From positions 448,001-512,000 of the forward strand of contig CAWGLD010000001.1 of assembly GCA_963823335.1 (NCBI GenBank): 64,000 nucleotides of DNA, in the 5' to 3' direction. Shown one piece after another: positions 10,949-26,916 of this stretch. The stretch is from an uncultured delta proteobacterium (GTDB lineage: Bacteria > Desulfobacterota > Desulfobacteria > Desulfobacterales > B30-G6). The notes under the pieces were generated by a model, which saw nothing but the letters and a program-made list of their open reading frames with translations, was not told the origin of the DNA and ran no database searches. The stretch's first letter is position 1. Each line of letters begins with the position of its first letter. The translations under genes were made by a program, and so were the position numbers.

Positions 10949-11644
10949 TCAGCTCTTGGCAATAAATTCTTCCACTTCATACACCACTACATTTTCAACT
11001 TGCTCAAAAAATTCCTTTACCAGGGACACCCCACCCGGAAGCATTTTGCGACCCAGCTCTTCCAGATCCAGATCCATATCGGCGTGGTTTGCCCACCAGG
11101 TTTCAATAAAGCCATAGATCTGCTCGTCACCCTTGATAACGCGGTTGATCCTGTTAATGATATACTTTTTCCGGGCGTAATCGGTCTGGGACGCGTTAAG
11201 TACATCCGTGGCATGCTTATGCGTATGATAATGAAAAAAATCATTACCATCAATGCCTTGCGCCAGCTGGTAGAAGGTCATGCGTTTGACAGAATCATGA
11301 TTGAGTTTATCCAGAGCGACGAACTCATCCACTTCAAAGCTGGTATAGCCAGTAACCCGGGAACCAAAATCATCCGAAACGCTCAGTCCATTCGGCAGGA
11401 TGGTCGTATTGAGACGTTGAAACGCACGATCGATATCAGCTTGATTTTCCCACCAGGTTTCCACCATGCCAAACCAGCGCCCCTCACCTGAAATCACCCG
11501 CCGTACCCGATTGATCGTATATCGCTTCAAATAGTCGCCAAAGGCTTTCCGGGCCTGCTCAGCATGAATCTGAGTGTGGTAGTGCCAAAATTCATCGCTG
11601 TCCACACCATCCGGCAGTGAGTAGACGCCCAGTCTTTTTATCAT
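10949..11644 (-). CDS. Tandem two-domain EthD-like (dimeric alpha-beta barrel) protein
   Basis: Two ~110-aa repeats, each with F-x-HYHT-xx-HA, Y-x-INR and ETWW. Confidence 0.7.
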   Translation of the reverse strand: MIKRLGVYSLPDGVDSDEFWHYHTQIHAEQARKAFGDYLKRYTINRVRRVISGEGRWFGMVETWWENQADIDRAFQRLNTTILPNGLSVSDDFGSRVTGYTSFEVDEFVALDKLNHDSVKRMTFYQLAQGIDGNDFFHYHTHKHATDVLNASQTDYARKKYIINRINRVIKGDEQIYGFIETWWANHADMDLDLEELGRKMLPGGVSLVKEFFEQVENVVVYEVEEFIAKS

Positions 11645-11677: not shown

Positions 11678-13624
11678 TCAAATACCAATCGCGATCTCGG
11701 CTGCATCATGAACAGCTTTTCGATAGTCCCCTGGGGATTCGCAATCTCCGATTAAATAGACATGTTTCCTGCTTTTCGAAAGCATTTTCCCAAAACGGTT
11801 ATCAGGAACAACACCCACTGCCATCACAACCGTATCGAACCCATGCAATCGGCTCTCCTGTGCATATCGGTCCACCACCAGGTCCAGTTTACCCTCTATG
11901 GCGACAATGCTCCGGACTGCTGTGGATTCGAGAAAACGAAAATTCTTATCCGCCAGCTTGTCCAACAGAACCAGTTCGGCATCATGACTGATGTCAGACA
12001 AGATTCTCGGCAACATTTCCACAACAAGAACCTCCCGTCCGGGTTGGTGTAAGATCACCTCTGCTGTTTCAACCCCCATGGAGCTCCCGCCGATGACAGC
12101 CACCTTTGCTCCGATTTCAACCAACCCGGTCAAGACGTCCTCAGCAGTTACTACTCCTTCAAGACCCGTTCCCCCAATGCTCTTGGGAATCAAGGGGCGT
12201 GCTCCAGTCGCCACATAAATGATGTCCGGATTTAATGTCTCAACATCGTCAAGGGTCAATTCTCTGCCCAGCTGAACGGTAACGCCCAAACGTTGTAACT
12301 CCTTTTTATAGTATGTCAGCCACAAATCCTGATTATTCTTATGCTTGGGAATTTTTGCCAGTAACACCTTGCCACCCACCTGGTCTGCCTTCTCCACCAA
12401 TGTAACGACATGCCCTCGAAGAGCAGATATTCGTGCCGCTTCGAGCCCTGCCGGCCCAGCACCGATGACCAGCACATTCTTAACCGGTTCAACCGGCTTC
12501 AACTGGTCATCAAAAAGTCTTTCCTTGCCCACCGCAGGGTTGACCGCACATCGCATATCCTCAGGCCAAACTGCTGCACCCTTGGCACAACGCAGGCACG
12601 GACGGATCTCATCCAGCCGCCCCTGGCGAGCCTTATTGGGAAGCTCTGGATCCGCAAACAAAGGTCGGCCGATGGCAACCAGATCCGCCTTGCCATCTCT
12701 CAGAATCGATTCGGCAAAAACCGGATCCTCGATGGCACCACAGGCAATTACAGGAACACCGACAACCGATTTAATCCCCTCAGCCAGATAAACATTGTAG
12801 CCCTTGTCAATGCCGGCCGGCAGAAAGCTATACTGGGCGCTGGGAGCCATTCCTGCGGAAACGTGGATGATTTCCGCACCGGACATTTCGAGAATTCTGG
12901 CTATTTCCTTAGCATCATCCAGAGTGTTTCCGCCATTAATGTAATCGTGGCCGTTGATGCGTACACCGATCAACATGTCTTCACCAGCATGCTTGCGGCA
13001 ACTGGCCAGAATTTCACGCACGATACGGGTTCGCCCCTCGACATCACCCCCATATGCATCGGTGCGTTTATTCTGGTAAGGAGACAAAAATCCCGAGAGA
13101 AGATACCCGTGAGCGCAATGGATCTCAATGGCATCAAAGCCCGCTTCTTTGGCCCGGCGTGCAGCCTGGCCAAAATCTTCTACAATTGCTTGGATTTCTT
13201 CGACCGTCGGGGCCCTGGCCGGGTCCTTGCGCACAGGATCAGAAATCCCGGAGGGACTCAACGTCTCACCGCCGGCAATCAGGGCATAACGCTGCCGGCC
13301 TGAATGATATAGCTGGAGCGATACTTTTACATCGTATTTATGGATAGTTTCGACCAATTTCCGAAAACCAGGAATATACTTGTCATGGGTAATGGCCGTT
13401 TGGTTGGGATGTGAAGCACCATTTGGGTGAACATACGTGGCATTGACAATGATAAATCCCACACCGCCTCTTGCGCGGGCCTCATAATAATCAATCAGCC
13501 GTTCTTTAACATAACCCTCTGAACCGGGAATGTATATGGCCATGGGCGGCATGACAATGCGGTTGGCCAGCTCGAATGTTCGTAATTTTATTGGGTTGAA
13601 TAGATGGCTAAATTGGGTACTCAT
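11678..13624 (-). CDS. NADH:flavin oxidoreductase (OYE/FadH/BaiCD-like)
   Basis: NRIVMPPM, EIHCAHGYLL, GAGPAG; Cys motif CLRC..C has only three Cys; GAGGAG SD before ATG 13624. Confidence 0.92.
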   Translation of the reverse strand: MSTQFSHLFNPIKLRTFELANRIVMPPMAIYIPGSEGYVKERLIDYYEARARGGVGFIIVNATYVHPNGASHPNQTAITHDKYIPGFRKLVETIHKYDVKVSLQLYHSGRQRYALIAGGETLSPSGISDPVRKDPARAPTVEEIQAIVEDFGQAARRAKEAGFDAIEIHCAHGYLLSGFLSPYQNKRTDAYGGDVEGRTRIVREILASCRKHAGEDMLIGVRINGHDYINGGNTLDDAKEIARILEMSGAEIIHVSAGMAPSAQYSFLPAGIDKGYNVYLAEGIKSVVGVPVIACGAIEDPVFAESILRDGKADLVAIGRPLFADPELPNKARQGRLDEIRPCLRCAKGAAVWPEDMRCAVNPAVGKERLFDDQLKPVEPVKNVLVIGAGPAGLEAARISALRGHVVTLVEKADQVGGKVLLAKIPKHKNNQDLWLTYYKKELQRLGVTVQLGRELTLDDVETLNPDIIYVATGARPLIPKSIGGTGLEGVVTAEDVLTGLVEIGAKVAVIGGSSMGVETAEVILHQPGREVLVVEMLPRILSDISHDAELVLLDKLADKNFRFLESTAVRSIVAIEGKLDLVVDRYAQESRLHGFDTVVMAVGVVPDNRFGKMLSKSRKHVYLIGDCESPGDYRKAVHDAAEIAIGI

Positions 13625-13673
13625 ACCGCTTCTCCTCATCTGAATATGGCAACCTTTGGTATTGACTGAACGT

Positions 13674-14875: not shown

Positions 14876-15511
14876 ATGACACCTGCAAAAGAAAAAAATA
14901 AGAAAGAAGCGAAAAAGACAAAACACAAAAGCTTCCGCGAAATCCGATATGAAGAAAAGAAGCTCGCCATCATAAAGAGCGCTGCCAAAGCCTTCGGTCA
15001 AAAAGGTTTCCACGCTGCAACAATTGAAGACATTACAAATGATTTAAAAATGACAAAAGGGAGCCTCTATTATTATTTTTCAACCAAAGAGGAGCTTCTA
15101 TTTAACGCGCATCTGCTATCATTGGAAAAAGTCCTCAAAAATATTATCCAGATAAACGCGAAAAATGACCCACCTGAAATAAAGCTCAAAACCGCCATCT
15201 CAAGACACTTGGAGGTGTTGGCAACGGATTTTGAAGGGGCTTTTCTACTCCAGTATGAATTTCATCTCCCCAACGAGTATCTCGATGAAATCATTGTCAT
15301 GCGGGATACCTACCAGAAAAATTTCATCCAAATCATTGAAGAAGGCATCCAGGCGGGTACGTTTAAATCCCAGAATGCCCGGATGGTAGCCTTCGTCATT
15401 TTAGGGTCCATCAACTGGTTTCTGAGGTGGTACTCCTCCACAGGCAGCTGGACTATTGAGGAAATCTCAGACGCTTATATCGATCTTTTCTGTAACGGCT
15501 TGTTGACCTGA
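14876..15511 (+). CDS. TetR/AcrR-family regulator (KstR2-like C-terminus)
   Basis: HTH GFHAATIEDIT...KGSLYYYFSTKEELL; ILGSINWFLRWY. Confidence 0.92.
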   Translation: MTPAKEKNKKEAKKTKHKSFREIRYEEKKLAIIKSAAKAFGQKGFHAATIEDITNDLKMTKGSLYYYFSTKEELLFNAHLLSLEKVLKNIIQINAKNDPPEIKLKTAISRHLEVLATDFEGAFLLQYEFHLPNEYLDEIIVMRDTYQKNFIQIIEEGIQAGTFKSQNARMVAFVILGSINWFLRWYSSTGSWTIEEISDAYIDLFCNGLLT

Positions 15512-15583: not shown

Positions 15584-16003
15584 TTATCGGGTTTCCGGCA
15601 TGACATCCATGATCACGCCAAACTTGTGGGCCGCAACCATAAACGCCATGAATGCGCATAGAGCGGCAATTTCTTTCTCTGTAAAAAGGTCTTTGAGTGC
15701 ATTGAAGTCTTCATCCGTTATGGCGTGATGGTCTGTGACAAACGTTTTGGTCAACGCAAGCGCTGCTTTGATTTTAGGGTCTGGATGATCCTCATCCGGT
15801 TTTCCACCGATTACCATTCAATATCGGCAGCCATTCCCCCAGGCTGAGGCTCTTCGGACCTGCTCCAGCAACTCCGGGTCCAACGGCGTTGATGAAAAAA
15901 AGGCTTTCTCAAGCGCAACCCAACCCTTCAGGACTTCAATATTGTGACCAAGAAGCTTTTTAAATGGGGTCAATCCGTTTTTGGACAACGTAATCCGAGA
16001 CAT
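15584..16003 (-). CDS. AhpD/carboxymuconolactone-decarboxylase-like selenoprotein (CxxU), copy 2
   Basis: ORFs 15818-16003 and 15584-15817 are in frame and separated only by TGA in GCRY*M, giving one 139-aa protein; SECIS-like hairpin 18 nt downstream. Confidence 0.85.
15781..15799 (-). promoter_or_regulatory. Bacterial SECIS-like hairpin
   Basis: CCGGATGA-GGA-TCATCCAG, 18 nt after the UGA at 15818-15820. Confidence 0.75.
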
Positions 16004-16028
16004 TCTCCGACTCCAGCTGATAATGAGT

Positions 16029-16493
16029 TCATTTAGAATTTATTGATGGATCCATTGTAGTACCCGCAAGTGATGAGCTGTCTTCAGGGCCAACATCCAT
16101 AAGCACACCGAATTGATGAGAGGCTGACACAAAGACCATAAATGCACACAACTCAGACATCTGCTTTTCACTGAAATGCGCTTTCATCTCCTTAAAGTCC
16201 GAGTCACCAATGGCTTTGGGGTTGCTCACGAATTTATCGGCCAAGGTAACTGCAAGCTGTGTAGAAACATCCTGATGCACCGCATCAGGCCGACCATTGA
16301 TGGCCATTCAATACCGACATCCAAACCCCCATGCCAGGGTCCGACGGACCTGTTCCAGAAGATCGGAATCAACCGAGTTTTTGTTTACAACCGCATCCAT
16401 CATGTGTCTGAATGCGTCGAGAATCTCCGGATTGTGACCAATAATTCGCTGATTCGGCGTGTCGCCAACTGCTGAAAAGCCAATACGGGGCAT
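16029..16493 (-). CDS. AhpD/carboxymuconolactone-decarboxylase-like selenoprotein (CxxU), copy 1
   Basis: ORFs 16308-16493 and 16029-16307 are in frame and separated only by TGA in GCRY*M, giving one 154-aa protein; paralog of the adjacent gene with the same TGA position. Confidence 0.85.
16271..16289 (-). promoter_or_regulatory. Bacterial SECIS-like hairpin
   Basis: CCTGATGC-GGT-GCATCAGG, perfect 8-bp stem, 18 nt after the UGA at 16308-16310. Confidence 0.8.
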
Positions 16494-16526
16494 AGATAAC
16501 TCCTGGTCATGGCAAACTGAAAATCG

Positions 16527-17159
16527 TCATGATGACTTACTGTCAGATGCAATTTCCAATCCCTTTTTAAATGCCGCAAGGTTTAATTCAAATTTTTTAT
16601 CATCGAACTGTTTCTTCAACACGGCGATAAAATCATTTTCCGATATGGGAAACAGATCCAGGCCGATGGCAACACCGCTCATAATTGTATTTGTAAGAAC
16701 GGGTGCTCCCATTTGCAGCGCAATTTCAGATGCATCAATAAATAGTGCTCGGCTTGAAAGCTTTTGTGCTGCATGGATTATCTCGTCCAGCTTCGGATAG
16801 TCAGCGCCTCCGGATGTAACATCAAATGGATAAGAAGGCCGGGTGTTCGAGATAACAACAACGGACGGGTTTCCCCAAGTACCCAGGACGCGCAAGGCCT
16901 CGACCGGTTCAAGACTGATAACGATATCCACCTTGCCACTGGGCGTCAGTGGGCTGTACAAGGACTGCTTGGATATTCGCAAATGGCTTGAAACCGGCCC
17001 CCCGCGCTGAGCGGCACCGTAGGTATCCCCGACGGTAACGGCAAAGCCTTTGTCTGTCAGTGCTCTTCCGAACAGTTGTGCCATCAGGACGTTACCTTGT
17101 CCGCCTACCCCGGTGATAATGGCATTCAAGGGATCTTTTTTCAGACGATGGTTATTCAT
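16527..17159 (-). CDS. iorB: Indolepyruvate:ferredoxin oxidoreductase beta subunit
   Basis: GVGGQG, YGAAQRGGPVSSHLRI, LEPVEALR; ATGA overlap with iorA. Confidence 0.9.
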   Translation of the reverse strand: MNNHRLKKDPLNAIITGVGGQGNVLMAQLFGRALTDKGFAVTVGDTYGAAQRGGPVSSHLRISKQSLYSPLTPSGKVDIVISLEPVEALRVLGTWGNPSVVVISNTRPSYPFDVTSGGADYPKLDEIIHAAQKLSSRALFIDASEIALQMGAPVLTNTIMSGVAIGLDLFPISENDFIAVLKKQFDDKKFELNLAAFKKGLEIASDSKSS

Positions 17160-19090
17160 TTATCTTTTCCTTTTTCGGCCTTCAAGGGCTTCAACAATAT
17201 CGCATCATGCCTGCAGACCTGGGCACAGACACCGCAACCAACACAAATGGCCTCATCGATCTTGGCCTTCTGCGCTTCGGCATCCCACATAATTCCCGGA
17301 CATTTAAATGCCCGGCTGCAATAGCGGTTACATCCGCAATCCTCGCCAACACATTTGCTTTGATCTACCCAGACATCGTAAAGCTTGCCGCTACGGGCCA
17401 TCTGCAGCGCACATTGCTGCCGCATGATCAAAACCCTCGGACCCTGCTTCTCATCATTCATAAAATCCAGGACTTTTTGGGTCGCCTCTTCACTGTTGTA
17501 GGGGTCAACGATATCCACACGAACACCGAGTGATTTGCATATATCTTCGATCAACACAGGTTTTGCAGGATGACCAAAGGTATCCGTACCGGTCCCGGGA
17601 TGGGGCTGAAAGCCTGTCATGGCGGTCGCACCATTGTCGAGCACCACCAACGTCAGGTTCGATTGATTGTTTACCGCGGTAACCAGGGCCGGAAGAGCGC
17701 CATGATAAAAAGTACCATCGCCCACGACGGCTACCACCGGTTGCTTCATATCAAATTGTCCCAGTTTCCCAAATCCGTACCCAACGCCCGGACCGGAGCC
17801 CATGGCCTGTTCCGTTTTCATGATGGAGTACCCGGACGGGAACAACCCAAAACTGTAGCAGCCGATATCACCCGTCACAAAACCATCACGCGTGTCCAGG
17901 ACTTCAGCATTTTTAATGGCCCAGTAACTGGCGCGATGCGGGCATCCGGCGCAGAGCGCCAGCGATCTTGGCGGCACCAGCCGGTCCACCATCTCTTTGG
18001 CCTGCCGATCATATTCAGGCGGTCTGGCTTCATATTTAATCGATAATATTTCGGTTAGGGCCTGAATAATAATATCGGGATTTAACTCACCGGTTGCGGC
18101 AAGCGGCCCGGTACGGCGGCCGTAAAACGTCGGCACCGGAAACTCGGATGCCCATTCCACAGCCAACTCCTTGAGATTGCCTTCCAAAAAGGGCTCTACC
18201 TCTTCAAGAACAAGGATTTTTTGATTGCTTGCCATGTGCTTTTTAATAAGTTCATCAGGAAGGGGCCAAACCGTTCCTATCTTCAGAATCCCCACCCGGT
18301 CCCAGAGATCCAGCAGGTTCATTGCGTCCAGTGAATACAGGTAGCAACTTCCACAGACGATAATGAGAAGTTCCGGATTTTCTGGTCCCTCGTAAAAGTT
18401 GAATACAGAATCCTTGCAAAGCGCCTTCGCCTGAGATAATTTCTCCCTGGCTTCAATATGCTTCGGCAATGACGGAAATGCCACAAACTGTCGTTCAGTG
18501 TCAAAATGCGCTTTGCGCTTCTCCTGGGGCAAGGCACCCAAAACCGTCCTTCCGCGTGCATGCTGCAAGCGGGTAGCGCTTCGAAGAAGAACCATCCGTC
18601 CGATCTTTTCGGAAAGCTCAAGAGCAAACGTGGTCATGTCTTTGGCCTCCTGAAACGTTCCCGGTTCCAGCAACGGGAAGTCGAGAGACCGGGCCAGGGG
18701 ACGTGAATCCTGTTCACTGGTGCTGGTAATCCCCGAGGGGTCGTCACACACCACCAGGACTAAACCACCTTTGGATCCGCTGGTGGAGATACCGGACACA
18801 AAATCCAAGGCCACGTTCAACCCATTCTGTTTCATGGCCGAAAGTCCCCGGAGCCCTGCAAAAGAGGCAGCAGCAGCTGTTTCAACCGCGACTTTCTCAT
18901 TGATCGACCATTCGACGTATATATTCATCTTTTCCGCCACCTGGCGAATCGCCTCGGTAATCTCCGTCGAAGGGTTTCCAGGATAGGAAGCCACCACATT
19001 CACGCCGCCTTCAAGTGCACCACGTCCAATGGCTTCACTGCCCAGGAGCAGCTCTACCCGGCCCTCTGTTTTATTTGAAATGTCCGCCAT
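17156..19090 (-). CDS. iorA: Indolepyruvate:ferredoxin oxidoreductase alpha subunit
   Basis: YPGNPSTE, NEKVAVE, MKQNGLN, CAGCPHR, GDIGCY, GDGTFYH, C-terminal ferredoxin. Confidence 0.92.
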   Translation of the reverse strand: MADISNKTEGRVELLLGSEAIGRGALEGGVNVVASYPGNPSTEITEAIRQVAEKMNIYVEWSINEKVAVETAAAASFAGLRGLSAMKQNGLNVALDFVSGISTSGSKGGLVLVVCDDPSGITSTSEQDSRPLARSLDFPLLEPGTFQEAKDMTTFALELSEKIGRMVLLRSATRLQHARGRTVLGALPQEKRKAHFDTERQFVAFPSLPKHIEAREKLSQAKALCKDSVFNFYEGPENPELLIIVCGSCYLYSLDAMNLLDLWDRVGILKIGTVWPLPDELIKKHMASNQKILVLEEVEPFLEGNLKELAVEWASEFPVPTFYGRRTGPLAATGELNPDIIIQALTEILSIKYEARPPEYDRQAKEMVDRLVPPRSLALCAGCPHRASYWAIKNAEVLDTRDGFVTGDIGCYSFGLFPSGYSIMKTEQAMGSGPGVGYGFGKLGQFDMKQPVVAVVGDGTFYHGALPALVTAVNNQSNLTLVVLDNGATAMTGFQPHPGTGTDTFGHPAKPVLIEDICKSLGVRVDIVDPYNSEEATQKVLDFMNDEKQGPRVLIMRQQCALQMARSGKLYDVWVDQSKCVGEDCGCNRYCSRAFKCPGIMWDAEAQKAKIDEAICVGCGVCAQVCRHDAILLKPLKAEKGKDK

Positions 19091-19171: not shown

Positions 19172-20311
19172 CTACCAATCAAAGGTTTGGAAAACCGGGT
19201 CACGGCAATCCAGGTACAGCAGATCATCCCGATCACCACTCTTGCATGCCAGGTTGTCCAATGCTGTTTTTTTCTTCTTTACCGATGCCTGCTTCAACTT
19301 CTCCAGATTACCATCCGGAACGTCTCTAAATTCCAATACCTGCCGGTCTTTGGCCAGCTGCATCAAGGCCTCCCCGGCCGCAGTTCTGACAATAACCTGG
19401 TTCCAGCCCTTGGCAACCTCCCATCCATCCGGCAGGCGTGCAGAACCAACTGAAATATCGCTGAATTCCGCGGTTACATCTGTGCAGAACTTACAGGCCT
19501 CACGGACACAGGCTTCCACCTCATCCAGGGGAATCTCAACCAGGCCGCTGTCCGTATCCACCTGCATGGTCTTGTATTTACTGGGGGGAATATCCAGACC
19601 GACAACTGACCGCTGGTGGACTTTCTGATGGAGCAAGTGTTTAAAACTCCGCCAGGACAACACCCATCCACAGAACAGTCCTATGGTGAGATGCAGCTTT
19701 CCTATCTGGTTATCATTTTTCGGAAAGGGCTTCATTTTCATCTTGGCCAGGGCCAGGGTCTGGCAAGGCGTTGCCACAATACCTATTTTTTGGGCAGCGC
19801 TTTGGGCCGCCAGATTGAACGCTTCCACCATGGGTGCGGCAATGAATTTGCTCTTAGCCAACTTAGGCACCTCACTGGCATCACTCACCGCAACGCCTCT
19901 GGGCAGCGTCGCCCCCCCCCCTTCGGCCAGCAGGGCTGTATCAATGATGCCTTCCGTCAGTGCCAGCGACATCAGTGTGGTTACGGTACCGCCATGTTGG
20001 GCTATGGCACGGATCTCCGGGTTGCTGGCACGGGTCAGATAGAAACCTTTGACAGCACCAAGTTCGGGGGTTAAATCCTGTGGATCAAAAAGCTGCTTGC
20101 GAATGGACTCCAGGTCCGTCGGTGTCCTGGGGCAGAAGGCATAACAACGACCCGCGGCCCGGTCACAGACATCTTTAACCACCGTTTTATCCATGGATGT
20201 GGCATAGTAGGGGCATAGGTTGACACAGGCGCCACACCCAGTGCAAAGACCGGTATCATGCACCTCTTCCATCAGCTCTTTTTGACCTCGAATGTAGGTG
20301 TTATTTCCCAT
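19172..20311 (-). CDS. F420 hydrogenase/dehydrogenase beta-subunit-like (FrhB/FdhB) Fe-S flavoprotein
   Basis: CTGCGACVNLCP, AQHGGTVT, ATPCQ, IGLFC, CKFCTDVTAEFSDISVG. Confidence 0.88.
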   Translation of the reverse strand: MGNNTYIRGQKELMEEVHDTGLCTGCGACVNLCPYYATSMDKTVVKDVCDRAAGRCYAFCPRTPTDLESIRKQLFDPQDLTPELGAVKGFYLTRASNPEIRAIAQHGGTVTTLMSLALTEGIIDTALLAEGGGATLPRGVAVSDASEVPKLAKSKFIAAPMVEAFNLAAQSAAQKIGIVATPCQTLALAKMKMKPFPKNDNQIGKLHLTIGLFCGWVLSWRSFKHLLHQKVHQRSVVGLDIPPSKYKTMQVDTDSGLVEIPLDEVEACVREACKFCTDVTAEFSDISVGSARLPDGWEVAKGWNQVIVRTAAGEALMQLAKDRQVLEFRDVPDGNLEKLKQASVKKKKTALDNLACKSGDRDDLLYLDCRDPVFQTFDW

Positions 20312-20393
20312 CAAAGGAATCCTCCTAGGATATCTTTTTCATTGTCCAGCCCGTCGAGGGCCACTACTTGCTGTTTCTATTTGTTTTTTTCGA

Positions 20394-22257: not shown

Positions 22258-22596
22258 TCAGCCTTTTACAACCACCTCTTCCACAGCGAAACTGTTTGGA
22301 TTGACCACCCGCGAGAAATAATCCTCATCAATATTCTTGCCGTTGGGCAGCACGGCCTTATAACAGCGATCATAGACACGGTGCATGGCTGCTTCATCCT
22401 CATACCATGTTTCCACGATTCCAAAACAGATTTTTTTCCCTTTAAGAACCTTGGTAACTCGGTTGATCACATACCTAGCCAGGTCATCGCCTGCGGCTTT
22501 GATGAAATCAGCCGCGTGTGTCTGGGTATGATAATGCCACCATTCTTCCTCATCTGTTTCTTCTGGAATTGAATAAATACCTATTCGTTTTATCAT
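22258..22596 (-). CDS. Single-domain EthD-like protein
   Basis: WWHYHTQTHA, YVINRV, VETWY, LPNG. Confidence 0.7.
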   Translation of the reverse strand: MIKRIGIYSIPEETDEEEWWHYHTQTHAADFIKAAGDDLARYVINRVTKVLKGKKICFGIVETWYEDEAAMHRVYDRCYKAVLPNGKNIDEDYFSRVVNPNSFAVEEVVVKG

Positions 22597-22657: not shown

Positions 22658-23362
22658 TCAAGCCTTGGCAGTGAATTCTTCCACCACATAACCAAAAGCA
22701 TCCACAACCCGAACGTTGAAATCCTCTGAAACATTTCTGCCATTAGGCAAGATCACCCGCTTATGGGCCTCAAATCCCTTTTTAAGACATTGCCTGTCGG
22801 CAAACCAGAGTTCAACGACCCCAAAACAGACAGCCTGCCCCTTGACAATTCTGCTCACCCGGTTGATGACGTAATATTCCAGGTAGTCGTCAAAGGAATC
22901 GACACTGTGTACGGCATGCTCACGTGTGTGATACTCCCAGAATTTTTCCGAATCGGTCCCCTGGGGCAGGGAATAGAAACCCATATATTTGGCAGGTGAA
23001 GATCGCAATTCCCGGGAATGTTTTTTCGCAACAAATTCTTCGACTTCAAACGCAACCGGTTGATCTGTCAAACGGCCAAAATAATCCTGGGCTACACTTT
23101 TTCCGTTTGGAAGAACCTCGCTTTCCAATGCCCGAAAACCGGCCTGCATTGCAGACCGATCCCGCCACCAGGTTTCTACAACACCAAAGAAACGGGTGGT
23201 TCCTTTGGTCAAATCGATTACACGATTAATGGCGTATTTAACCAGACTGTCGCCACATACCCGCAAAACAGCCGGTGCGTGTATCCGGGTATGATATCGC
23301 CAGAACGCATCACCATCCGTCTGCCTGGGAATGGAATACAACGCCATTCGTTTAATCATCAA
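22658..23362 (-). CDS. Tandem two-domain EthD-like protein
   Basis: FWRYHTRIHA and FWEYHTREHA repeats; paralog of 10949-11644. Confidence 0.7.
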   Translation of the reverse strand: MMIKRMALYSIPRQTDGDAFWRYHTRIHAPAVLRVCGDSLVKYAINRVIDLTKGTTRFFGVVETWWRDRSAMQAGFRALESEVLPNGKSVAQDYFGRLTDQPVAFEVEEFVAKKHSRELRSSPAKYMGFYSLPQGTDSEKFWEYHTREHAVHSVDSFDDYLEYYVINRVSRIVKGQAVCFGVVELWFADRQCLKKGFEAHKRVILPNGRNVSEDFNVRVVDAFGYVVEEFTAKA

Positions 23363-24197: not shown

Positions 24198-26126
24198 TTA
24201 AACACCATATGCTGCCATATAACCCTCGTAGAATGCATTGACGCCATCTCGAGGTCCCTTTGCGTCTCCGACTATCATTAGATCTACGCCAGTATCCTCC
24301 AGCGCTGAAAACAGTGCATTGTCTGGTCTGCCGCCTATGGCAAATACAATAGAGTCCACATCATCAACCGTTCTTTCACCGTCTGGCGACTTCAGCATAA
24401 CTGTTTTATCCGAAACACCCGTGATAACCGTATCGCACATAGTATCCACGTTGTACTTGGCAAAATCTTCAAAAAGAAACCATTTGAAATCGGGCAGCAT
24501 ATCAGGTAAAATTTGCGGCATCATTTCAACAATGAAGACCTCTTTGCCCTGGGCAGCCAGAAAATGGGCTGTCTCTGCTCCCACAGGACCACATCCGATG
24601 ATCATCGCTTTCTGACCTACATCCACTTCTCCGGCCAGGACTTGCTCAGCGATGAGGGACCGGTCAACGTCAAGACCCTTGAGCGCCGGGATCTCTATTT
24701 TTGCGCCCGTGGCAATGATAACGGCATCTGGTTTTTCAGTTATCACAACCTCCCGGGTCAAGGCCTTGTTCAAACGAATGTCCACATCCAAACGTTTCAG
24801 CTCTTTCCCGCAAAAAGCAACGGCCTTGGCATATTCATCTTTATGGGGTGCCACCGAGGCCAGCTGAAGCCGACCGCCCAGTCTGGCACTTTTTTCGAAT
24901 AAAATGACATCGTGACCACGGAGTTTGGCAACACGGGCGGCCTCCATACCAGCCGGCCCACCACCTGCAATCATGACTTTCTTTTTGACTTTTGCCGAAG
25001 CTATATGCAGCTCCATCTCCCGTCCGGCTTCGACATTGTAGAGGCACCGTGTACTTCTATCCGTGAGTTCGCGATTATGGCAGTTATTGCAGGAAATACA
25101 GGGTCGAATTTCAGCAACACGACCGTCGGAAAGCTTATTCACATATTCAGGATCGCAGATGAGCCCCCTGGCCATGCCTATCAGGTCCGCCTGGTGGGAA
25201 ACCAACACATCTTCGGCCAGGTAGGGATCGCTAAGACGACCGGTAACCATCACCGGAATGGAAAGGGCCTTTTTAATCTCAGCCGCATCCGCTACATTCA
25301 ATCCACATTCATGGACCATGCTCGGCAACGTTCGTGTGTGACCCCAGCACGGTGAGAGCCCCGATGAAACGCTAATAAAGGCGATGCCCAGCTTTTCGAG
25401 CATCTGAGAGCTTTTTACCTGATCCTGAATCGTCAACCCCTCTTCAACATATTCTGCGTTGGAAAGTCGAACATGGATGGGAAAACGTTCTCCCACGGCA
25501 CTCTGACAAGATCCCACGACTTCTCTCAAAAAGCGAAACCGGTTTTCAAAACTACCCCCATAGGCGTCATCACGCTTATTGGCATGCAGGGACATGAATT
25601 GAGATGTCAGATATCCGTGAGCATGGTGAATCTCTATCATGTCAAAACCGGCTTCTTTGGCTCGCCCGGCCGCCAGGCCCCATGCTTCTACCAGTTCCTC
25701 TATCTCGCCAATACTCAAGGCCTTGGGGGTAACGTTCCCCGGCGGCCATGCAAGGGTAGAGGGGGCCACCGGCTGAATTCCCCGGGCCCCGGTGGCGTAC
25801 CGGCCAAGATGGTAAAGCTGTATGGATGATTTGGCGCCGCATTGATGCACTTTTTCATTATAGGTCTTGAACGCCTCAATATTCTGGTCACTATGCAGGT
25901 CAAGATCTTCTCCACTGCTGCCGGAAGGATGCACAAAGGTTGCGCCGATGATAATCAAACCGGTGCCCCCCTCGGCTCGCTTCAGGTTAAAGGCTTCTTC
26001 CCTTGGCACAAAGGCCCCGGTACTCATGTGGTTGGATATGGGGGCCTGAACAATTCTATTTTTAAGTTGAACGTCACCAATCTGAATCGGCGATAAAAGC
26101 GTCGGAAATTCATTTTTAGCGCTCAT
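24198..26126 (-). CDS. NADH:flavin oxidoreductase (OYE/FadH/BaiCD-like)
   Basis: NRIVQAP, EIHHAHGYL, CISCNNC-x11-C, GGGPAG. Confidence 0.92.
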   Translation of the reverse strand: MSAKNEFPTLLSPIQIGDVQLKNRIVQAPISNHMSTGAFVPREEAFNLKRAEGGTGLIIIGATFVHPSGSSGEDLDLHSDQNIEAFKTYNEKVHQCGAKSSIQLYHLGRYATGARGIQPVAPSTLAWPPGNVTPKALSIGEIEELVEAWGLAAGRAKEAGFDMIEIHHAHGYLTSQFMSLHANKRDDAYGGSFENRFRFLREVVGSCQSAVGERFPIHVRLSNAEYVEEGLTIQDQVKSSQMLEKLGIAFISVSSGLSPCWGHTRTLPSMVHECGLNVADAAEIKKALSIPVMVTGRLSDPYLAEDVLVSHQADLIGMARGLICDPEYVNKLSDGRVAEIRPCISCNNCHNRELTDRSTRCLYNVEAGREMELHIASAKVKKKVMIAGGGPAGMEAARVAKLRGHDVILFEKSARLGGRLQLASVAPHKDEYAKAVAFCGKELKRLDVDIRLNKALTREVVITEKPDAVIIATGAKIEIPALKGLDVDRSLIAEQVLAGEVDVGQKAMIIGCGPVGAETAHFLAAQGKEVFIVEMMPQILPDMLPDFKWFLFEDFAKYNVDTMCDTVITGVSDKTVMLKSPDGERTVDDVDSIVFAIGGRPDNALFSALEDTGVDLMIVGDAKGPRDGVNAFYEGYMAAYGV

Positions 26127-26127
26127 A

Positions 26128-26916
26128 TCATTTTCCTTTGTAAATGGGTTTTCTTCTCTCTGAAAAAGCCTTGACCCCTTCCCGGCTGTCTTGGGTGTTT
26201 TTAAGAGAATCAAAAAGAAAGGCCTCAAAGTCAAGACCTTGCTGCAATGCCAAACTCCTCAGGACGGATTCCTTTATGGCACGCATGGCAACCGGTCCAC
26301 GGCGACACAATTTCTCAGCCATCTGCATAGCCGTGTCCATCAATTCCTCGTTAGAAACAATGCGATTGATCAAACCGAAGCTGAGTGCCTTCCGGGCATC
26401 GATGGGTTCGCCCGTCAGCAGCATTTCCATGGCAACCGCATAGGGAACATTGCGAGGCAGACGTATGGTGCCACCAGCCCCCGGCATTATTCCCCATTTG
26501 ACCTCGGCCAACCCAAACCGGGCTGATTCGGCGGCAATTCGGATGTCACAGCACAAAACCAGTTCGAGACCGCCTGCAATGGCATAACCGTTGATGGCTG
26601 CAATGATCGGCTTGAACACATCCGTCCGGGGCAACCCGCCAAAATTTTCAGCCCTGGGATAGTAATTGGCCTTGGCTTCTCCTGCCATCCGGGCAGGAAG
26701 ATAGGCCTTCAAATCACCACCGGTGCAAAAGGCCTTATGGCCTGCCCCGGTCAAAATCGCGACCCAAAGGTCATCGTCTTCGCGAAAATCGAGCCAGACC
26801 GCGGCCATCTCCTTCTCGGCTGACGGATCCATGGAGTTGTGAACATCCGGGCGATTGATGGTGACCAACGCAATGTGATCTTTTTTCTCGTATGTAATTT
26901 CAGACATAGACTTCAT
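26128..26916 (-). CDS. Enoyl-CoA hydratase
   Basis: FCTGGDL, AINGYAIAGGLE, GLAEVKWGIMPGAGGT. Confidence 0.92.
   Translation of the reverse strand: MKSMSEITYEKKDHIALVTINRPDVHNSMDPSAEKEMAAVWLDFREDDDLWVAILTGAGHKAFCTGGDLKAYLPARMAGEAKANYYPRAENFGGLPRTDVFKPIIAAINGYAIAGGLELVLCCDIRIAAESARFGLAEVKWGIMPGAGGTIRLPRNVPYAVAMEMLLTGEPIDARKALSFGLINRIVSNEELMDTAMQMAEKLCRRGPVAMRAIKESVLRSLALQQGLDFEAFLFDSLKNTQDSREGVKAFSERRKPIYKGK

Follow-up and report, generated by a model that had tools for sequence, protein, structure and literature searches.

We have analysed a window of 64,000 nucleotides (nt) from the genome of an uncultured delta proteobacterium of the Desulfobacterales (lineage B30-G6; assembly GCA_963823335.1, contig CAWGLD010000001.1, positions 448,001 to 512,000; all coordinates below are those of the window). 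Two neighbouring minus-strand genes in it, here called A and B, are very probably intact selenoprotein genes, in each of which the UGA at codon 62 would be read as selenocysteine (Sec) by way of a hairpin that follows it, giving products with the AhpD/CMD fold and a C-x-x-U motif. A preliminary description of the region had proposed that two AhpD/CMD-like C-x-x-U proteins of 154 and 139 amino acids (aa) had been split by the open reading frame (ORF) caller, and this proposal is supported by the homologs, the Sec machinery and the covarying hairpin described below.

As called, gene A comprises two in-frame minus-strand ORFs, 16308..16493 (61 aa) and 16029..16307 (92 aa), and gene B two more, 15818..16003 (61 aa) and 15584..15817 (77 aa). 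A single TGA lies between the members of each pair and is followed at once, in frame, by the ATG with which the downstream ORF begins. Read through, gene A has 154 codons (16032..16493, minus strand, stop TGA at 16029-16031) and its paralog B has 139 (15587..16003, minus strand, stop TAA at 15584-15586), each with the motif C59-R-Y-U62. The in-frame TGAs occupy 16308..16310 in A and 15818..15820 in B and have closely similar contexts (WGFGCRY-TGA-MAING and WGNGCRY-TGA-MVIGG, respectively); the two broken pairs of the preliminary description stand as described. Each read-through gene has a ribosome-binding site of its own, AGGAG at 16500..16504, 6 nt 5' of the ATG of A, and GGAG at 16011..16014, 7 nt 5' of the ATG of B, both on the minus strand. 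The internal ATGs, which the preliminary description had held to lack a Shine-Dalgarno sequence, do indeed have no Shine-Dalgarno-like run within about 15 nt upstream when the sequence is read directly. The two read-through products share 47% identity (65/137, without gaps, E 2e-48) on both sides of the TGA. Sixty-six TGAs in the window have at least 50 open codons on either side, and a Cys-x-x-TGA arrangement is found in A and B only; the remaining places are the ends of genes that precede another open frame, or lie in non-coding frames.

Homologs of the two proteins were sought with a word-indexed protein search using A and an exhaustive phmmer search using B. The former returned three proteins: A's own C-terminal half, a second C-terminal half that begins MAVGGRPDAVHQD, and the full-length P0005, a 154-aa Cys form that reads G-C-E-Y-C-M at the site of the TGA. 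The latter gave 157 cluster representatives at E <=0.001, 66 of them at E <=1e-10, and residues were counted in an alignment of the best 150 of the 157. Among these 150 listed homologs, 111, full-length forms included, have Cys at the TGA column, as expected if the TGA takes the place of the second Cys of a CxxC (the position first suggested for it), and the complete CxxC is present in 107; the column is gapped in 26 and holds another residue in 13, several of these being short or poorly aligned. Nine of the 150 stop exactly at column 61 and another nine start exactly at column 63, which, on sequence grounds, is the signature of further putative Sec genes split by gene callers. In a smaller alignment of 39 sequences only A54, C59 and C62 are invariant (39/39 for both C59 and C62). 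Across the 107 CxxC homologs E47 is present in 92, R50 in 92 and R51 in 78, whilst a His within eight residues after the motif is seen in 12. The Met that follows Sec is found in 10/10 sequences of alignment A3 (A, B and their eight closest Cys forms) and in 21 of the 107 CxxC homologs overall; being shared with Cys forms, it is a family residue rather than a start codon.

These data bear on whether the genes are truly split, with the UGAs acting as terminators to give 61-aa N-terminal peptides and re-initiated C-terminal proteins. An ATG does stand directly after each UGA, and the halves are called separately in many metagenomes. Such an arrangement is nevertheless very improbable: the internal ATGs lack a Shine-Dalgarno sequence, the Met is the family residue just mentioned (present in eight Cys forms), the predicted fold is a single domain running across both halves, and the genes are accompanied by a hairpin of the selenocysteine insertion sequence (SECIS) type and by a complete Sec machinery.

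The SECIS consensus used for comparison has a G in the apical loop and lies a few tens of nt after the UGA. In gene A, the SECIS-like hairpin (16271..16289, minus strand) starts 18 nt after the UGA and consists of an 8-bp stem, CCUGAUGC/GCAUCAGG, closed by a GGU loop. The hairpin of gene B (15781..15799, minus strand) is in the same register, with seven of eight stem positions paired and a GGA loop. We aligned nine Sec genes from five genomes over a stretch that begins 9 nt before the UGA and ends 60 nt beyond it. All nine have the 8-bp stem beginning 18 nt after the UGA and a 3-nt loop that reads GGU, GGA or GGC, with 97.2% of the 72 stem cells paired. Three of the eight stem pairs show two-sided changes (G-C to U-A, G-C to A-U and A-U to C-G), and the observed covariation score was reached by none of 500 shuffles. 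When the 3' arm is slid by one to three columns, pairing falls to 18-39% and no compensatory change is left; RNAalifold predicts the same helix in the nine genes. The compensatory changes are non-synonymous on both arms, and in copy B of genome G005 both arms have changed together at the cost of two residues, D to N and P to S.

As a control, 80 Cys-form genes from named genomes were examined in the same register. They have between zero and five of the eight positions paired (three in 27 genes, one in 18, two in 17, four in 12, none in four and five in two), compared with seven or eight in the Sec genes, although in some Cys forms one codon is missing after the motif, which makes a fixed register slightly harsh on them. 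Over the first 50 nt, fold energies average -6.5 kcal/mol in the Cys forms and lie at -10.3 to -18.5 in the Sec genes. Rfam models, which were not expected to cover a SECIS of this kind, have no match anywhere in the window at gathering thresholds. A transcription-site scan calls the hairpin of A a 'terminator', the only one called.

The preliminary description had proposed a search of the genome for selA, selB, selC and selD, and all four are present above curated cut-offs in the window's genome (G000; 11 contigs, 93.9% complete). The tRNA-Sec, at 75.4 bits, clears its gathering score of 47 and is called by ARAGORN as tRNA-SeC with anticodon tca; selA scores 610.4 bits (cut-off 267.9), selB 373.4 bits (cut-off 242.25) and selD 372.2 bits with TIGR00476 (cut-off 125). 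The selD gene (G000 contig C5:144246-145172, locus L018) itself carries one in-frame TGA, indicating that selenophosphate synthetase is here a selenoprotein too, which fits an organism rich in Sec use.

TGA also ends plain genes in this window, among them iorB, the gene upstream of A, and gene A itself, and is therefore a working stop codon in the genome. The iorB stop (TGA, 16527-16529) happens to be in frame with gene A, from which it is separated by the spacer 16494-16526, so that a listing made with TGA read through joins iorB, A and part of the spacer into a 399-aa ORF. There is no SECIS-type hairpin to be seen 3' of the iorB TGA, and A starts from an ATG of its own, preceded by its AGGAG. 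One might still suppose that the two internal UGAs are read as Trp, Gly or Cys, through a genome-wide change of code or near-cognate suppression and without selenium. P0029 is recorded with W at the TGA column, the sole listed homolog to have it, and this W probably comes from a gene call made with translation table 4. Set against such decoding are the ordinary genes ended by TGA, the dedicated tRNA-Sec and SelB, and the nature of the site, the redox Cys of a CxxC, where Sec/Cys pairs are the rule; we regard it as scarcely credible.

To assess selection, the G000 genes were compared with their orthologs in G002, G005 and G006. The ratio of non-synonymous to synonymous substitution (dN/dS) is 0.055-0.18 for codons 1-61 and 0.085-0.21 for codons 63-137, at a dS of 0.56-0.74, the comparisons with G002 being saturated in one half each. 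Such low ratios on either side of the TGA indicate that both halves are kept as protein by purifying selection. No frameshifts or extra stops were found in the orthologs compared.

Related genomes were searched with stops read through. Of nine other genomes in the genus, three (G002, G005 and G006) have the tandem pair, every copy with the TGA, and a single TGA-bearing copy is found in G272, which belongs to another family of the same order. At the level of the family, 4/15 genomes hold close relatives; in the order, 18/401 match at E <=1e-8 but at E <=1e-40 only G000, G002, G005, G006 and G272 do so. In a phylum-wide sample, no relative at E <=1e-15 was found among the 400 other genomes searched. 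Among the taxa in which Cys forms are common are Chryseobacterium, Salinimicrobium, Clostridium and Brevibacillus; the search that produced the Cys-form loci used a pattern, drawn from a 10-sequence alignment, that demanded C-x-Y-C-M and hence could return Cys forms only.

Retention of the TGA in nine genes of five genomes, at a synonymous divergence of 0.56-0.74 or more, goes beyond chance, and its retention in two diverged paralogs, first pointed out for A and B, thus extends to a wider set. A decaying pair of pseudogenes, each the product of a nonsense mutation of a Cys codon, would need a single-base change only (TGC or TGT to TGA). Against this, the same TGA is found in paralogs of 47% identity and throughout the nine genes, dN/dS after the TGA is well below 1, and the reading frames are free of frameshifts and further stops, all of which makes decay extremely unlikely. 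On the evidence given so far, pseudogenes, truly split genes and a genome-wide reassignment of TGA were all rejected.

The history of the Sec forms was examined in an unrooted maximum-likelihood tree of the nine Sec proteins (with X at Sec) together with 58 CxxC representatives, all full-length and 125-185 aa long; rows outside this length range and half-length Sec fragments were excluded. The nine Sec proteins fall on one side of a branch (support 93/84; 92% of bootstrap trees), and this side splits into an A clade and a clade of B plus G272. The sequences fit a single change from Cys to Sec that may then have been followed by duplication; the tree, being unrooted, does not itself give the order of events.

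What kind of protein do A and B encode? Matches to curated models are weak. Pfam CMD (PF02627) scores 21.1 bits against B over residues 23-63, below its cut-off of 23; NCBIfam NF053654 ('YciW-related (seleno)protein') scores 27.8 bits (A) and 22 bits against a cut-off of 310, and TIGR01926 ('peroxidase-related enzyme') 14.5 bits (cut-off 81.8). Neither protein is matched at E up to 0.1 by NF041047, NF041238 or NF041537, which model AhpD-type selenoproteins. Pfam CMD is matched at E <=0.01 by 13 of the 39 family members, whilst 30 of them match NF053654 and 15 match TIGR01926 at E <=0.001. For the natural Cys-form homolog P0007, the Atlas clusters are automatically named CMD/AhpD family, with Pfam CMD given as 'none common' or 11%.

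A profile of the family, compared with proteins of known structure, is more informative. It matches Pseudomonas aeruginosa PA0269 (2ijc, 2o4d and 7xw1) with E-values between 3.8e-13 and 8.3e-13, in alignments that pair both G-C-x-Y-C and the Glu upstream of it, and the debrominase Bmp8 at E 1.7e-8, together with several 'AhpD core' proteins. An AlphaFold2 model of A, built from the 39-sequence alignment, is all-helical, with a mean predicted local distance difference test score (pLDDT) of 93.9 and a predicted template-modelling (TM) score (pTM) of 0.85, and its fold is a single domain spanning both halves of the protein. In a Foldseek search of the PDB with this model, ranks 1-37 are all AhpD/CMD-fold chains (query-normalised TM 0.63-0.70), PA0269, AhpD-core proteins and Bmp8 among them. 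Relative to the matched structures, the family lacks some 19 residues after the motif, and the position of the PA0269 His, four residues after the second Cys, is Gly in the family profile and Asn or Gly in A and B. The profile settles that A and B belong to the AhpD/CMD superfamily, within which sequence and model would place them in a short clade without the usual His after the CxxC. With this His missing the proton relay must differ, and for this reason A and B are not filed as AhpD proper.

Six metatranscriptome runs hold part of the stretch, and the contigs of four of them were compared with the window, bearing in mind that RNA libraries can hold DNA. The UGA of B is crossed by one contig (15629-15934) and that of A by four (16011-16566, 16154-17349, 16248-16517 and 16239-16389), and no variant is listed at either TGA. 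One of these four runs from A through iorB and into iorA. Assembled contigs from RNA libraries do not prove transcription, a single transcript or translation. Three contigs from three different studies, with depths of about 3-7, start at 16011-16020, within the 25-nt gap between A and B, which may be due to chance or may reflect the end of a transcript, or its processing, between the two genes.

Several observations weigh against reading A and B as Sec-decoded AhpD/CMD-fold proteins, in whole or in part. The folds of the whole 64 nt after the two UGAs are no more stable than those of shuffled sequences (z -0.37 and +0.08); it is the covariation and the comparison with the Cys forms that carry the case for the hairpin. 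The nine Sec genes are kin (two paralog clades plus G272), so the covariation amounts to roughly three to four independent events rather than nine. The hairpin overlies a conserved peptide, P-D-x-x-H-x-D, and part of its conservation could therefore be driven by the protein. As regards the superfamily, Pfam CMD falls below its cut-off for B and does not match A at all, and since the His is replaced by Gly or Asn, and is rare in the homologs, AhpD-like chemistry is not assured. No RNA contig from the four libraries bridges the gap between A and B, 15935-16010 being uncovered. Finally, Sec insertion itself is inferred from sequence, as are the chemistry, the reductant and the substrate of A and B.

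With these points in mind, the Sec-decoding reading may be put as a sequence of steps. On reaching codon 62, the ribosome would read UGA as Sec, directed by a SelB-type hairpin inside the coding sequence. The product would carry a redox centre, Cys59-x-x-Sec62, where a helix begins, accompanied by a conserved Arg-Arg and by a Glu, likewise conserved, 12 residues upstream of the centre, and is predicted to be a thiol/selenol oxidoreductase that reduces a peroxide, sulfenic acid or disulfide on a partner protein or small substrate. Sec62 would attack the oxidised partner or peroxide, Cys59 would resolve the resulting selenenylsulfide and an external reductant would restore the pair. The two genes would have arisen by duplication of a gene that already bore Sec; in four genomes of one genus they accompany the cluster of iorAB and an FrhB-like gene. 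It is our guess that the pair may be co-transcribed with the iorAB cluster, protecting or serving its oxygen-sensitive enzymes.

The cluster in question lies directly upstream of A, on the same strand. According to domain scans, iorB (16527..17159, minus strand) encodes a POR-gamma/IorB-like subunit (PF01558, 116.7 bits) and ends 33 nt before A, iorA (17156..19090, minus strand) encodes an IorA-like subunit with thiamine pyrophosphate (TPP), POR_N and 4Fe-4S domains, and the next gene (19172..20314, minus strand) encodes an FrhB/FdhB-like flavo-iron-sulfur protein. Further upstream on this strand are genes for an EamA transporter, two SDRs, an EthD protein, a 678-aa OYE-plus-flavin reductase, an enoyl-CoA hydratase and an acyl-CoA dehydrogenase; downstream of B a gene for a TetR-family regulator (14876..15511, plus strand) converges on the pair. 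No promoter-like or terminator-like site was found between iorB and A, and a peroxiredoxin (ahpC) domain is absent from the 18 neighbouring ORFs scanned, these being the part of the genome in which ahpC was sought.

The preliminary description had raised the idea that the pair has a role in a pathway or forms a heteromeric enzyme. The case for this leans weak, the iorAB/FrhB neighbourhood being shared by four genomes of one genus only. In its general form, which is compatible with Sec decoding, the idea is that A and B would work specifically for the iorAB/FrhB-like catabolic module and not in peroxide defence at large; they could, for instance, be a hetero-oligomer that takes electrons from 2-oxoacid oxidation or that repairs enzymes of the module. 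The 33-nt spacing between iorB and A, with no promoter- or terminator-like site in it, and the RNA-library contig spanning iorA, iorB and A speak for this, as does the conservation of gene order: SDR, EamA, FrhB-like, iorA, iorB, A, B, TetR is the order in G002, G005 and G006 as well. Orthologs of A and B are both kept as Sec forms, and within the genus the genomes with orthologous iorB (82-97% identity) are the very four that carry the pair, G003 and G008 having only iorB paralogs of 44-45% identity and no pair. The last observation cuts the other way too, for distant iorB paralogs evidently do without A and B, and the four genomes are such close kin that they make one observation of linkage. 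What the co-occurrence of iorB and the pair shows is co-inheritance as one block among close kin, nothing more.

Nor was the neighbourhood seen at the loci examined outside the genus. In G272 the Sec form stands alone at a contig end, with an AAA-ATPase/DUF4143 gene about 500 bases away and, beyond that, genes for a rubredoxin-reductase-like protein, two rubrerythrins and a desulfoferrodoxin. To survey the Cys forms, 21 of the 80 loci were picked for taxonomic spread (one, without the target ORF, was dropped to leave 20), and up to two ORFs on each side were scanned, seven of 79 ORFs being left out. In 11 of the 20 sampled loci a divergent Lrp/AsnC regulator gene lies directly upstream, and in none of the 20 is iorAB beside the Cys form. 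We therefore consider a dedicated role in the module unlikely.

More specifically, A and B could form a hetero-oligomeric selenol/thiol redox relay of the IorAB/FrhB-like module, a proposal based on linkage in four related genomes and one that we hold to be distinctly less probable still. In such a relay, low-potential electrons from 2-oxoacid oxidation would pass by way of the FrhB-like flavo-iron-sulfur protein to the C-x-x-U centres, which would then reduce a pathway intermediate or keep oxygen-sensitive enzymes active. In mycobacteria AhpD is linked with 2-oxoacid dehydrogenases, and the relay, if true, would be a ferredoxin-era counterpart of that link.

Some further features of these neighbourhoods can be recorded here. 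The Lrp/AsnC genes beside the Cys forms (loci L052, L088, L091, L096, L097, L098, L106, L111, L113, L117 and L121) encode proteins of 146-156 aa, lie about 100-150 bases upstream and occur in Bacillota, Bacteroidota and one bin labelled Bathyarchaeia; Cys form and Lrp/AsnC gene are a conserved regulator-target pair. Two of these loci, L091 (labelled Brevibacillus) and L098 (labelled Bathyarchaeia), have near-identical layouts. Elsewhere in the window, small proteins encoded on the minus strand at 10949-11644, 22258-22596 and 22658-23362 share an N-terminal motif, M-I-K-R-x-G/A-x-Y-S-I/L-P...W-x-Y-H-T, that is also seen in orthologs. Only the 234-aa member of the three reaches Pfam EthD. Each adjoins an SDR or an OYE-plus-flavin reductase of about 650-680 aa, a pattern suggestive of an EthD-like/SDR/OYE unit that recurs within the catabolic region. 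The proteins of 653 and 678 aa encoded at 11678-13639 and 24198-26234 (minus strand) combine Oxidored_FMN and Pyr_redox_2 domains, the architecture of 2,4-dienoyl-CoA reductase and also of OYE-type aryl-CoA reductases. They share the region with the enoyl-CoA hydratase, the acyl-CoA dehydrogenase, iorAB and an amino-acid-type ABC transporter.

The reading of A and B as selenoprotein genes alters the annotation of this stretch, in which four 'hypothetical' fragments become two complete genes, and the same correction applies to the orthologs in at least four other genomes and to half-length protein entries from metagenomes. It leaves knowledge of Sec decoding, and of the kinds of protein that use Sec, unchanged. 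To the AhpD/CMD selenoproteins it would add a short clade that lacks the His, set apart by model scores from the catalogued families as far as these are listed in the accessible portions of the reviews cited below. The nine Sec and 80 Cys genes make a natural set for the study of SECIS elements, with a simple hairpin of 8 bp and a GGN loop, and the pair itself is an instance in which a selenoprotein gene has been duplicated and retained next to an oxygen-sensitive 2-oxoacid:ferredoxin oxidoreductase.

How do A and B compare with systems already known? That CxxU AhpD-like selenoproteins had been reported before was noted in the preliminary description and is borne out by the literature, here drawn on in the excerpts available, which shows them catalogued since 2005-2008 (PMC2398784, PMC1794560, PMC13188914). 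Selenoproteins identified in the Global Ocean Sampling (GOS) data include AhpD-like 1 (COG2128, CxxU, 299 genes) and AhpD-like 2 (pfam02627, CxxU, 70 genes), and one GOS read has adjoining Prx-like 1 and AhpD-like 2 genes (PMC2398784). A 'distant AhpD homolog' is described in two Geobacter species, and both an AhpD-like protein and a distant AhpD homolog in the Olavius delta-1 symbiont (PMC1794560, PMC1976440). Five AhpD-type selenoprotein families are tabulated with their models in reviews of 2022 and 2026 (PMC9312934, PMC13188914), NF041047, NF041238 and NF041537 being among the models named in the latter (PMC13188914), and BSepDB has an AhpD-like family page (PMC13326102). With the catalogued AhpD-like and CMD-like selenoproteins (Zhang, Gladyshev et al.), as these sources present them, A and B share the AhpD/CMD superfamily, Sec as the second residue of CxxU, abundant Cys-form homologs and occurrence in anaerobes and metagenomes. 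Unlike them, A and B reach none of the named family models, and form tandem Sec paralogs at the end of an iorAB cluster. Judged by model scores against the families so tabulated, they do not belong to the catalogued families.

The closest structural relative is PA0269 of P. aeruginosa, deposited as AhpD/CMD, which is both the best profile match and the best fold match (TM 0.66-0.72). It differs in that Cys takes the place of Sec, a His stands four positions after the second Cys and the part that follows the motif is longer by about 19 residues; identity is 18-20%. Mycobacterium tuberculosis AhpD, the alkylhydroperoxidase that re-reduces AhpC, bears its CxxC redox motif on the same fold as A and B. 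Its second Cys attacks and a Glu 12 residues before its first Cys takes part in catalysis, features that would presumably correspond to Sec62 and Glu47 of A and B. A and B, in contrast, have no match to any NCBIfam AhpD model, no catalytic His and no nearby ahpC, and each is a single short domain. The debrominase Bmp8 (6ohi, 6ohj), lastly, has the CMD fold (TM 0.69) and uses thiol chemistry to reduce a small organic substrate. The match to it covers mainly the C-terminal helices (profile positions 74-136) at 14-15% identity, and the cluster around A and B gives no sign of halogen metabolism, but Bmp8 makes clear that the CMD fold can serve catabolic chemistry.

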